From an uncultured bacterium (GTDB lineage: Bacteria > Patescibacteriota > Minisyncoccia > Phycocordibacterales > PALSA-1337): a stretch of DNA of 64,000 bases. The stretch spans positions 442,042 to 506,041 of the forward strand of contig OY969557.1 of the NCBI GenBank assembly GCA_963701025.1. Reading direction: 5' to 3'. Shown one piece after another: positions 1,063 to 44,377 of the stretch. Position 1 is the stretch's first letter. Each line of letters begins with the position of its first letter. Made by a program: the position numbers and the translations under genes. The notes beneath the pieces are model-generated. The model was not told the origin of the DNA. It worked only from the letters and a program-made list of their open reading frames with translations, and did not search any database.

Positions 1063-2677
1063 ATGACCGCAAAAAAATATTTTATCTACACCAGAAAATC
1101 TACCGACACCGAGGATCGGCAAGTCAGAAGCCTTGCCGACCAGCTCTCCGAGCTGCGCGAGCTCGCCAGAAAGGAGCAGATCGAGGTCATGGATACCTTC
1201 ATTGAGAAGCAGACTGCCAAGATTCCTGGTAGGCCAGTATTCGCGGAGATGTTAGAGCGTATAGAGGCCGGCGAGGCCTCCGGTATCCTCGCTTGGCACC
1301 CCGACAGGCTCGCTCGCAACTCGGTTGATGGAGGAAAGATCATCTACTTAGTGGATACTGGGCATGATCACAGACCTGAAGTTCCCGACATTCTGGTTTG
1401 ATTCGACACCACAGGGTAAATTCATGCTCTCGATCGCTTTTTCACAGTCGAAATATTATGTCGACAACCTATCGGAAAATGTTAAGCGCGGTTTCCGCCA
1501 GAAATTGAAGAACGGCATCTGGCCACAGAAGGCTCCGATTGGATATTTGAATGACAAAAAGACCAAGCTCATCACCATTGACCCCGATAAGGCTCCTCTG
1601 ATCAGGAAAACCTTCGAGGCCTACGCCACTGGCACATATACCCTCTCCGGATTGCGTAAGGCTATGGGCGAGCTTGGTCTCACAGGTCACGGTGGCAGAG
1701 ATCTTTCCATTTCAAACTACCAGTATCTTCTCAAAAACCATCTCTACTACGGCCTCATATATTTCCATGGAGAGTTTTGGGAGGGCAAACATGAGCCCAT
1801 CATCACAAAGAAGCTGTATGACACGGTTCAAGAGGTCATGACGCATAAAAGCAAGCCTCAACATGAGGGAGGATTGAAACCATATGTATATCGCGGACTA
1901 TTCAAGTGCGCCGAGTGCGGATGTTGCATCACCATTGAGACCAAGAAAGGTCATAACTATTTGAGATGTACAAAGCGCAAAGGACCATGTTCGCAAAAGT
2001 ATGTCCGCGAGGAGGCTATGACTGATTTGATCAAAGAGGAACTGAAGAAAGTATCTTTGTCTGATGCTGTAGCAGATTGGCTCATCGCAGAGGTTGAGAA
2101 AGACCGCGCCATAGACGACAATTCATCGAAAAACCAGATTCAGAAGGTCAGTGACGACGTTGTGGCAATCAACACTAAGCTCGACAAACTCATGACGGCG
2201 TACCTTGAAAACGCTCTCACACTAGAGGAATACCAGACTACCAAGAACAAATTAGTGACCGAAAAGCAGATTTTGAAGGATAAACTGGCATCTTTCGGGC
2301 GGGTCTCGACCAGTCGGTTCGAACCGGTCATCGATTTCCTAAACGACTGTAGACAGGCCGGTATTTTGGCGGAAAGCACGGATGCGGCGAAAATTCGCTC
2401 ATTCTTCCAAAAAGTCGGTTCGAACCCACTCGTCCGCGACCGCGCCCTCGTTTTTTCGCCTCGGGCACCCTTCGCCTTCGTCACCCAAATCCCCAAAAAC
2501 ACCAGCAAAGAAGCGGGCGGGGCGGAAGGGGGGTTTCAGGGGGGAATTCCGCCCCGCCCTCCGCACGTGCGATGCATCTCGCCTTTTTCGGGCGATTTTG
2601 AGTTTTCTGAAAAATTGCTGCGGGACTTGGACTCGAACCAAGATAACATCCTCCAGAGGGATGTGTCCTACCATTAG
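1063..2677 (+). CDS. large serine recombinase (resolvase domain + recombinase domain + zinc ribbon), frameshifted near 1380; 3' end uncertain
   Basis: N-terminus YTRKSTDTEDRQVRSLADQ ... LAWHPDRLARN is a serine recombinase catalytic domain. It continues in the +1 frame as ITDLKFPTFWFDSTPQGKFMLSIAFSQSKYY plus a CxxC..C zinc ribbon. The ORF tail overlaps the antisense tRNA-Gln and is probably spurious beyond about 2480. Confidence 0.8.
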
Positions 2678-2688
2678 ACGATCCCGCA
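2618..2688 (-). tRNA. tRNA-Gln(CUG)
   Basis: Cloverleaf with a U1:A72 pair, a G73 discriminator, a GGTTCGAGTCC T-arm and anticodon loop CUCUGGA. Confidence 0.85.
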
Positions 2689-2758
2689 AAATGGAAAAGT
2701 GCACCTTGCAGAATAACCCAAAAAGAGCTATAACACAATAAACCAACAAGGAGGACAA

Positions 2759-3370
2759 ATGATCGAAACTATTGAAACGACAGCGCTCTCGCCGGAGAGC
2801 GTCATTGAAAGATTGGCCCAGGCCAAAGTGCGCACCGATAACTGGGGCAAGCGCCCAGGAACAAAATCTCTCGAAGAATTCATCGGGTACTGTCAGACGG
2901 GCGAATACGAGCTTGATGACGACGGTGACATATTGAAAGTCCGGGTGAATGTCGCCACGGCCTTCGTGCGTTGTATCATCCTCCCCCGCCTATGGGAAAT
3001 GTACGAGGACGGGAGGTATCGGGTCGACACCCACGTGGCCAATCGGAGGAACCGGTTCGAGGGCAGCGTGGCGGCTCGCATACGAACCCTCTGGGGCGAG
3101 GACGCGGAGGGGGCCATCCGCCGCGGGATCGCCAAAGAGCTTGGCCCGATGGAACCTCGGTTCGAGGATCCGAACGAATACGAGCTCCGGTACGATCGTG
3201 AAGAATCAGTGAACGCGGTGGGCGCGGAGGGGTTTCCCGGTATTCCCGCCACGTACCTTGTCCGACGGCATGTCTGCATGGTCCCTCCCGACATGTGCCA
3301 CCGCAGGCATATTCTCGCTTGCGATGATGGAACTGCCATCGTGTTCAAATGGAACGAAATGAGGATGTGA
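2759..3370 (+). CDS. hypothetical protein
   Basis: Strong SD (AAGGAGG, 6 nt spacing). 203 aa. No recognisable motif. Confidence 0.6.
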   Translation: MIETIETTALSPESVIERLAQAKVRTDNWGKRPGTKSLEEFIGYCQTGEYELDDDGDILKVRVNVATAFVRCIILPRLWEMYEDGRYRVDTHVANRRNRFEGSVAARIRTLWGEDAEGAIRRGIAKELGPMEPRFEDPNEYELRYDREESVNAVGAEGFPGIPATYLVRRHVCMVPPDMCHRRHILACDDGTAIVFKWNEMRM

Positions 3371-41497: not shown

Positions 41498-41594
41498 CTA
41501 TCTATAGCGTTCGCTTATCATAAGTCAAAGACCCTTCATACACAACTGCGGAGAACAAAAAGCCGCACCATGGTGCGGCGGCGGGAAGAAACTC

Positions 41595-42368
41595 TCACGT
41601 GACACGGAGGACGATGCCGGCGTAATTGTCATCCGATTTCTCCTTGCAGAGATCACTCAAGACGACAGTGGCTTTTGCGGCACTCATGCTCAAAAGACTC
41701 AAGAACGTCATGCCCGGGGAGAGCAACGCGTCCCACAAGCCGTCGGTGCCGACGACCAGAACCTCGCCTGGTTCGATGGATTCGTCGGTGCAGATCGACG
41801 GCTCATGTATGACTCCGGCTGATCGGAAACGACCGTCGCCGATGCTCCTGGTGAGCATCAAGGCACATTCGTCGCCGAGACACAGCTTGCCGAGACAGAC
41901 TTCAGCCTCGGGTATGCGCTTGAATGACTGTTTCGCCCGTTCCCGCTCGACCTCTACGGAGAATCGGTGCAAGGTCGTGATCTTCGCTGTCCTGGAAGGA
42001 TCCTTTGAGATCCGATGAACCTCGACATCTCCGACATTCGCCGAACACATCTTATAATCCGATATACGGATGACGGTCGCGGCAACGCCTGTGCGTTCTC
42101 CGAATGATTCATCGACGGCTTTATCAAGCTCGGCGAAAGCCGGGCCTGCGACGAGACCAAAGCCTTCGGGATCGCAAGACATAAAACGGACGGCTCGGCC
42201 GGCGATGCCTTTCAAGACCAGGTCGGCTGCTTTTTTGCCATTTTCCCCGTGTCCGTCGCATAGGAGCACGCAAATGCCGTCTTTGAAGTCAATGACCTTC
42301 ATCTGATCCTCCATCGTCGGTCGCTGTCCTTGGCCGAAAAACAAACCGCGTTCGATCTTCATTGTCAT
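41595..42368 (-). CDS. PP2C-family Ser/Thr protein phosphatase
   Basis: LLCDGHG, TDGLWD, DDNYAGIVL motifs. Confidence 0.8.
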   Translation of the reverse strand: MTMKIERGLFFGQGQRPTMEDQMKVIDFKDGICVLLCDGHGENGKKAADLVLKGIAGRAVRFMSCDPEGFGLVAGPAFAELDKAVDESFGERTGVAATVIRISDYKMCSANVGDVEVHRISKDPSRTAKITTLHRFSVEVERERAKQSFKRIPEAEVCLGKLCLGDECALMLTRSIGDGRFRSAGVIHEPSICTDESIEPGEVLVVGTDGLWDALLSPGMTFLSLLSMSAAKATVVLSDLCKEKSDDNYAGIVLRVT

Positions 42369-42454
42369 GAGCTTTCCCTTTCACATTGTTAAACTTTCAC
42401 ACTATTCAAGATGTTCGAAGGAAAGCTTACTCCTCTCTCTACTCAAAATCAATA

Positions 42455-44377
42455 TCAGGAGACCTTGGCCTGCTTCTTCGGCGTGATGCCGTTGGCCATG
42501 AGCAGAGCTTCGTACTCTTCCCTTTCTATGGTCTCCGCCTCTATCAGACGCTTGGATACGGCCTCGAAAGCCTTCTTGTGCTCATTCAAAGCCTTGACGG
42601 CCCGTTCGCGGGCTTCGGTCATTATCTTGGAGACTTCTGAATCTATGAGAGCGCCGACTGTCTCTGAATAATCCTTATCCGCCACGCCCATGCCGAAGAG
42701 CACCCGGCCTTGGGCGGATTCGAGGGCGATGGGGCCGATCTTGTCGGACATGCCGTAGCGCGTGACCATGTCGCGAGCGAGGGCAGTCGAGACTTGCAGG
42801 TCATTGGACGCGCCGGTGGTGATGTCGCCGAAGACCATATTCTCGGCCACGTAGCCGCCGAGAGACATGGCGATGTCGTCGAGGAATTCCTTGCGCGACT
42901 GGAGCCTGCGCTCTTCGAACGGCAGGTGCAGGGTATAGCCTGCGGCGCGGCCGCGGGAGATGATGGATATCTTGTGGACCGGATCGGCGTTCGGCAGGAC
43001 CGAGGCCACGATAGCATGGCCGGCTTCATGATAAGCAGTGATCTCCTTTTCTTTTGGCGACAATACATGGCTCTTGCGCTCCGGTCCGAGCATGACTTTC
43101 TCGATGGAGCGGATGAGGTCGAACTGGCCGATCGTCTTCCGGTCTTCCCGGGCGGCCAGGATGGCCGCTTCGTTCATGAGAGAAGCCAAGTCGGCGCCGG
43201 AAAAGCCCGGCGTGCGCTCGGCCACGATGCGCAGATTGACGTCCTCGGCCAATTGCTTCTTGGCAGTGTGGATCTTCAGGATGGCTTCGCGGTCGTTCCG
43301 GTCGGGAAGATCTATGGTCACGCGTCGATCGAACCTGCCGGGACGGAGAAGCGCCGGGATCGAGGACATCCGGCCTGTTCGTGGCCGCCATGACGATGAC
43401 CTTCTCGATTCTGCTCGAAGCCGTCCATCTCCGCCAGGATCTGATTGAGAGTCTGCTCGCGCTCGTCATTGGCTCCGCCCATACCCGCCCCGCGGGCTCG
43501 GCCGACGGCGTCTATCTCATCCACGAATATGATGGCCGGAGCCTGCTGTCTTGGCCAGATTGAAGAGGTCGCGCACGCGACTGGCGCCGACCCCGACGAA
43601 CATCTCCACGAATTCCGAGCCGGATATGGAAAAGAAGGCCACGCCGGCTTCGCCCGCCACCGCCCGGGCGAGAAGAGTCTTGCCGGTGCCCGGCGCGCCC
43701 ATGAGAAGGACGCCCTTCGGTATCTCGGCGCCGATGTCGATGAATTTCTTTGGATTCTTCAGGAAGTCCACGATCTCCGACAATTCCTGCTTGGCTTCCT
43801 TTGCGCCGGCCACGTCTTTGAAGGTGACTTTGACTTTCGGGTCGTTCGGCATGGTGATCCTGGCTTTGGACTGGCCGAAGGACATGACTTGCATGCCCGC
43901 ACCGCGCATCTGGCGGGTGATCATCCAAATGAAGAGGCCGAGGAAGAGGAGCGGCACCAGGAATGGCGCGAGCTGTCCGACCCAGTAGGTGAAGCCGGAA
44001 GGCTGGGAAACGGTGATGGTCGTCGATGCCAGCTCGGCCGGCGTGACGCCGAGGCGGGTCAGACTGTCGGTGAGCGACGCGTCAGTTTCGCGCTGGGCGA
44101 CCTTGGTCGTCTTGTCCGCGTATGTCGCGACGACCTGGGTGTCCTCTATGGTCAAAGAAGAGACGGAGCCTTTCTTGATGTCGGCCGCCAAAGACGACAG
44201 GGGGACAGGCGTTGACGCGTCGGGCTTGCCGGCGAACTCTGCATATATGCCGGTCAGGAGCAAAAAGACCAGAAAGACCGTGGCGATGACGTTCAGAAAG
44301 GTCATTCTCGGCGGGCGGATATTCTTGCGTTGCCTGTTCTGGCTTCCTTGCTGTGGGGGCATACCGGTAGGATTCAT
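42455..44377 (-). CDS. ftsH: ATP-dependent zinc metalloprotease FtsH, about 3 single-nt frameshifts
   Basis: Walker [17 protein letters not shown] zinc motif. Pieces occupy three frames (junctions at about 43520, 43400 and 43370). Confidence 0.85.

Follow-up and report, generated by a model that had tools for sequence, protein, structure and literature searches.

One-base frameshifts recur in conserved and essential genes, tyrS and ftsH among them, on a 64-kb stretch of contig OY969557.1 (the window). The question raised by this locus is whether the breaks are features of the genes or errors of the assembly. The window is a Patescibacteria (Paceibacteria/Parcubacteria-like) contig from an uncultured population. 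The frameshifts are very probably uncorrected insertions or deletions (indels) in the consensus of a long-read or mixed-strain assembly and not features of the genes.

Frame breaks in conserved genes

All claimed sites were examined in a three-frame reading and compared with Pfam profiles or homologues. To locate the indels, each possible one-base deletion or insertion was scored against the homologues, which placed the events within 3-9 nucleotides (nt). Thirteen one-base frame breaks were backed by homology or Pfam. Eleven of these are extra bases and two are missing bases, the latter in pyrG and in a secreted protein (Table 1). Five breaks were found in tyrS and three in ftsH, with one each in pilB, ftsX, pyrG, a serine recombinase and the secreted protein. 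The first-pass annotation of the window had reported frameshifts that are each restored by adding or removing one base, and the 13 breaks bear this out. When all open reading frames (ORFs) of 165 related loci were used as tblastn queries no additional shifts were found in the covered regions. Codon-usage frame tracking gave no new sites.

Repaired tyrS and ftsH

In the three-frame view ftsH showed three +1 changes within 195 nt, and with a net change of +3 the original frame was regained. A MAFFT DNA alignment with two intact relatives contained exactly three 1-nt gaps, near 43550, 43406 and 43359, and the three indels were unique to the window. The three shifts previously reported for ftsH were therefore confirmed by both views. 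Among 60 homologues 382 columns are at least 95% conserved, and repaired FtsH had the majority residue at every one. Fifty-two of these columns fall within the shifted segment, where the Walker B and second-region-of-homology motifs lie.

The frame of tyrS advanced by +1 five times in the three-frame view. After repair the TyrRS protein (398 amino acids, aa) showed no gap at any of the five junctions when aligned with 82 homologues. The gene is thus repeatedly broken, as had been noted, with five shifts and not the four first counted. Repaired TyrRS deviated at two of 101 conserved columns (I for L and Y for F, both conservative), compared to one to four deviations in real homologues. The correct frames of repaired ftsH and tyrS contained no in-frame stops and no larger lesions. 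As judged from their sequences FtsH and TyrRS are, once repaired, canonical and undamaged, and long-standing pseudogenes are thereby excluded.

The orthologous loci of relatives, which had been proposed as a check, gave the same picture. Both genes were intact and in a single frame in all relatives examined (at least 120 FtsH and at least 120 TyrRS matches listed, and 80 genome loci). Genome decay with pseudogene formation in reduced genomes is alike in that many genes are interrupted. It is unlike the present case in that decay brings stops, substitutions at conserved sites and larger deletions, none of which were present in repaired ftsH or tyrS.

Real mutations would be expected to belong to a minor, defective or dying strain or to a redundant decaying copy, as very recent pseudogenes on this haplotype. 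This explanation is very unlikely. Only 64 kb are visible, and second copies of the genes are possible. Two essential genes, however, would have acquired five and three frameshifts with no stops and no substitutions at conserved positions. The genes around the broken ones are also intact and syntenic with relatives.

Comparison with an independent assembly

Exact-sequence look-up of intact neighbouring proteins led to short Logan contigs from run ERR11718638, which were compared to the window by blastn (Table 1). Over the approximately 12 kb compared there were 16 single-nucleotide polymorphisms (SNPs). The only indels were at the frameshift sites of pilB and of tyrS junctions J1 and J2. The extra base was absent from the Logan contigs at all three covered sites (pilB 26132/3, tyrS 32276 and tyrS 32161). 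At the pilB site Logan has GTGCT-CTCC and the window has GTGCTTCTCC. The corresponding sequences are CACGA-GATC and CATGAAGATC at tyrS J1, and GGAT-CGAGC and GGATGCGAGC at tyrS J2. The partial PilB of 187 aa (L168) and the TyrRS N-terminus of 200 aa (L170) encoded by Logan were both uninterrupted. Exact-protein look-ups of PP2C, ftsE, ApbE and the 2'-5' RNA ligase returned no records, and ftsH, ftsX, the secreted protein and pyrG were thus uncompared.

In tyrS the differences were concentrated. The tract at 31940-32280 had 11 SNPs relative to L170, eight of them synonymous, while the 625 nt upstream had none. The tyrS indel cluster starts at 32276-32279, exactly where the window and L170 begin to differ. 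This is a genuine strain-variable or recombined tract, or is consistent with two co-existing haplotypes. This suggests that, in this part, the assembly path ran along a minor or mixed haplotype.

These results bear on real mutations in two ways. The window tyrS haplotype is distinct from that of Logan (11 SNPs), so Logan is no direct disproof of mutations on the window haplotype. The surroundings of the pilB site, in contrast, are near-identical to Logan (one SNP per kb), which nevertheless lacks the extra base. Assembly indels or population consensus noise had been put forward as the most likely source of the frameshifts. This is supported by the absence of the extra base at three of three sites in an independent assembly and by the position of the tyrS indels in a strain-variable tract.

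Table 1. Broken genes, matching Logan contigs and other features of the window.
Feature	Position in window	Strand	Observation
tyrS	31290-32491	-	five extra bases: 32276 (A), 32161 (G), 31852-57, 31788-90, 31404-08
ftsH	42455-44377	-	three extra bases: 43549-54, 43406-08, 43354-59
pilB (type IV pilus assembly ATPase)	25663-27424	-	one extra T at 26132/26133
ftsX	6482-7439	-	one extra base at about 7148-7153, inside GCCGATCGACGCC
pyrG (CTP synthase)	4073-5838	-	net -1 somewhere in 4722-4800
large serine recombinase	1063-2677	+	one extra base in 1359-1367; frame moves +1 at ACTGGGCATGATC
secreted DUF5666-type protein	32796-33706	-	one missing base in 33594-33620
surface-protein locus (fn3 and Cys-repeat modules)	51096-56149	-	beyond the range 1063-44377
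Logan contig L166	46386-44274		100% identical
Logan contig L167	47590-50474		1 SNP (99.97%)
Logan contig L169	26199-31170		3 SNPs, no indel (99.94%)
Logan contig L168	26228-25211		1 SNP and 1 gap (99.8% over 1017 bp)
Logan contig L170	32915-31890		11 SNPs and 2 gaps (98.7%)
type IV pilus cluster	15.6-30.3 kb		
other group-typical genes			ligA, gatCA, recG, smpB and tmRNA
ribosomal/secretion stretch			IF3, L35, L20 through adk, map, secY, ribosomal proteins

Recoding

Programmed +1 ribosomal frameshifting, or other recoding by which full-length proteins are still made, was weighed against the same junctions and is extremely improbable. Eleven of the 13 shifts are in the +1 direction, and the rare CGA codon (3.7 per 1000) lies in the zero frame at five junctions. 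CGA is nevertheless read normally in frame 33 times in intact genes. No relative at approximately 80% nucleotide identity has a shift at any of these positions, and in-frame alleles are present in the same population at three of three tested sites. No shift site or heptamer is shared between the junctions. The P-site codons are unable to re-pair in the +1 frame, and the zero-frame stops are not adjacent, the nearest being 8 to 40 codons away. An association with CGA codons (five of 12 junctions, P of approximately 0.03 by hand estimate) was post hoc and was rejected as a signal.

The programmed +1 shift of prfB (RF2) is a known case of such a shift in an essential gene. It differs in having a CUU UGA C site and an upstream Shine-Dalgarno-like stimulator and in being kept among relatives, none of which applies to the window junctions. 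The RF2 gene of the window has no prfB-type recoding site. Recoding and a decaying genome copy, the alternatives named in the first-pass annotation, are both unsupported, given relatives without shifts, the lack of a shift-site signature and undamaged repaired proteins.

The RF2-type release factor of the window (8637-9545, minus strand) is short at 302 aa, has SPF and GGQ motifs and is encoded by a single ORF. An apparent N-terminal extension of this ORF, considered in connection with prfB-type recoding, proved to be a tRNA-Thr gene (9566-9641).

Direction, clustering and sequence context of the indels

The homology-supported events comprise 11 insertions and two deletions (P = 0.02), or 11 and four when the surface-protein locus is counted. 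They are clustered, with five in tyrS within 900 nt and three in ftsH within 200 nt. When 13 indels were placed at random, at least five in 900 nt together with at least three in 200 nt occurred in 8e-5 of trials.

Homopolymers account for few of the sites. At least four insertions are not homopolymer extensions, and sites without any homopolymer include ATGCGAG (verified against Logan), GGTCGAG, AATCGAG and GCTCGAT. Transcriptional slippage at homopolymers, which restores the frame in the mRNA of some insect endosymbionts, would fit best at the pyrG break, perhaps at an A6 run, and at tyrS J3, which lies at an A4 run. Such slippage is generally efficient only at runs of approximately nine or more A or T, which counts against it here. 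Most sites have no homopolymer, and at least four have no repeated base at all. Slippage has almost no chance of being the explanation.

GATC and TCGA ranked first in an unbiased 4-mer scan of the insertion sites. These motifs were touched by seven of the 11 insertions in the window, or by eight of 11 when the Logan sequence GGATCGAGC is used for tyrS J2. With a null expectation of 9.6% per site, P is approximately 0.009 after Bonferroni correction. Of all GATC/TCGA sites in the window, only about 1% are affected. As palindromes, both motifs resemble methyltransferase targets, and their enrichment may be a sign of methylation motifs in the organism or of an error context specific to the platform. 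Taken together, the excess of insertions and their GATC/TCGA surroundings point to a technical process rather than to real mutations. That the window haplotype truly has multiple +1 insertions beside GATC/TCGA in essential genes, as a recently inactivated lineage that persists in the population (e.g., a dependent cheater alongside intact strains) or as one that tolerates them through some unknown recoding, is highly improbable.

One model of the insertions was set aside. Under it each insertion would be a strain SNP at a wobble position for which the consensus kept both alleles, as in CT[T][C]TCC, GA[A][G]ATC and AT[G][C]GAG. By eye, all 11 insertions conform to it. The test has a null probability of 0.88, gives no discrimination and leaves the model a conjecture only.

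Genes with single breaks

In pilB the Pfam T2SSE profile was matched at 4-240 and 238-369 in two frames. The single extra base claimed for this gene was upheld. The Logan contig identified it as one T of the TT at 26132-33 and not the C that had been named. The FtsX_ECD profile was matched at positions 1-38 in one frame and 39-89 in the next, in agreement with the one shift reported for ftsX.

The CTP_synth_N and GATase domains of pyrG were in different frames, and with one A added the product aligned end to end with the Thermus thermophilus CTP synthase 1vco, a solved structure. One shift in pyrG is therefore sound. The A-run proposed as its site (A6, 4758-4763) is plausible, with the break placed within 4722-4800 and the junction in a variable loop.

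The Pfam Resolvase domain of the serine recombinase (profile 2-86 of 145) was in one frame and the Recombinase and Zn_ribbon domains were in the next. The homologue from locus L101 aligned over residues 12-109 in frame 1 and 109-533 in frame 2. The mean alignment score rose from 156 to 297 when one base was deleted. The domain split and the score gain agree with the single shift described earlier. The 3' end of the recombinase overlaps an opposite-strand tRNA-Gln(CTG) gene (2617-2688, minus strand) by approximately 60 nt. This overlap suggests an integrative element inserted at or beside the tRNA gene.

The shift noted in the secreted protein was recovered with its single homologue, from locus L018. 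Residues 7-36 and 32-285 of this homologue aligned in two frames, and adding one base increased the alignment score from 109 to 166.

Surface-protein locus

At least three shifts had been attributed to the giant surface-protein locus, which lies outside the range to which the frameshifts had been assigned (Table 1). Two -1 shifts, near 54180-54205 and 52790-52840, are probable from the continuity of the Cys-repeat and fn3 modules, with no homologue spanning the junctions. The third, at 54374-54390, may be a true gene boundary. The further break, at 54689, consists of a stop codon with an AT-rich spacer behind it, and this discontinuity may also be a true gene boundary. The locus contains two perfect (100%) in-frame tandem duplications, at 53325-54160 (414 bp × 2.0) and 52007-52156 (75 bp × 2.0). 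The 75-bp duplication copies part of an fn3 domain. The duplications are either recent and real or another assembly artefact.

Gene content and relatives

The best database matches to repaired FtsH had 91-93% aa identity and were in proteins labelled Candidatus Paceibacterota or Patescibacteria. At the DNA level the nearest ftsH genes were approximately 80% identical to the window. The gene content is typical of the group (Table 1). Approximately 30 kb of other conserved genes were without breaks, including ligA, gatA, pilC/T/M, recG, smpB to secY, and ribosomal proteins.

The best identities in protein searches were 93% for full-length FtsH, 92% for the FtsH mid-segment and 83% for TyrRS, and no near-identical intact copy was found. 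Neither ftsH nor the 3' half of tyrS is thus spanned by a complete or called copy in the independent assembly. Genome contigs scanned with TyrRS gave a best identity of 78% and metagenome contigs scanned with RecG gave 83%. A look-up of the exact RecG protein gave no record.

Several further candidates were rejected. Candidate shifts at 20180, 40900, 45704 and 58320 were traced to reference ORFs that are antisense or adjacent. A chain of ORFs at 15.6-19.4 kb, considered as fragments of one gene, is a series of distinct pseudopilin genes. The ribosomal-protein ORFs that overlap at 60.5-63.6 kb are normal genes.

Two small adjacent ORFs at 20015-20352 (plus strand) are conserved beside ftsH in relatives (loci L003-L008 and L090). 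The relatives have them in one frame, with a single stop codon in between, while in the window they are in different frames. The difference could be another indel or mere spacing variation.

Other observations concern ligA and the tRNA genes. Within the ligase adenylation domain of ligA a 7-nt unit, AAAGGAG on the coding strand, is repeated 4.7 times at 14769-14801. It encodes a loop rich in Lys, Glu, Arg and Gly, and its period, not being a multiple of three, could favour slippage. A tRNA-Ile gene with anticodon TAT (UAU) at 41423-41497 (minus strand) is an unusual AUA decoder; in most bacteria AUA is decoded by a lysidine-modified CAU tRNA. Two tRNA-Met(CAT) genes, at 10608-10685 (minus strand) and 10792-10864 (plus strand), are divergent, approximately 100 nt apart and adjoin a tRNA-Asp gene.

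Origin of the frameshifts

The consensus most likely derives from long or noisy reads, or from several closely related strains mixed together. It would be accurate over most of its length, with single bases locally added (11 cases) or dropped (two to four cases). Errors would gather where the population is polymorphic and the assembly ran on a haplotype that is minor or mixed and has little effective depth. A second place of concentration would be GATC/TCGA, a bias expected of consensus errors related to base modification or alignment. The remaining 10-12 sites presumably have the same origin as the three checked. The particular mechanism may be the platform, methylation, or both alleles kept at strain SNPs.

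Several points weigh against consensus errors as the explanation. The analysis covered assembled sequences only. The Logan comparison covers three of approximately 15 sites, namely pilB, tyrS J1 and tyrS J2. The tyrS Logan contig is a different haplotype, approximately 3% divergent in the tract, and what it strictly demonstrates is the existence of an intact allele in the population and not the absence of the extra bases from the window haplotype. The GATC/TCGA enrichment was found post hoc. Typical residual nanopore errors are homopolymer deletions and substitutions, not insertions outside homopolymers. The platform-specific part of the explanation is uncertain for this reason.

Consensus indels of a related kind have been described. 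In long-read assemblies collapsed alleles with nearby variants lead to wrong read alignments, INDEL errors and truncated ORFs (PMC8445201). In that work (Cosentino et al., 2021) one-base INDELs truncate ORFs near inter-haplotype variants, as in tyrS. The errors vanish there with resolved haplotypes or accurate reads, and here the tyrS indels are absent from the other haplotype. The cases differ in that a diploid eukaryote was studied there, whereas the window comes from a mixed bacterial metagenome population with a link to variants for tyrS only. Passages in Wick et al. (2019, PMC6591954) and Lohde et al. (2024, PMC11610573) name modification or methylation motifs as a major source of nanopore consensus errors. 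There, as in the window, errors gather at short palindromic motifs that are typical methyltransferase targets. The errors they report are mostly substitutions at Dcm and other motifs, whereas those in the window are one-base insertions.

Claims of this kind can be tested cheaply and without reads by searching other assemblies of the population, made independently, for exact copies of neighbouring proteins. If the indels were real they would mean recoding or a dying lineage in a bacterium of the candidate phyla radiation (CPR, Patescibacteria), an implication that finds no support in the evidence. On this contig, gene calling would split or truncate at least seven conserved genes. Inference of completeness or metabolism would then wrongly score tyrS, ftsH, pyrG, ftsX and pilB as pseudogenes.

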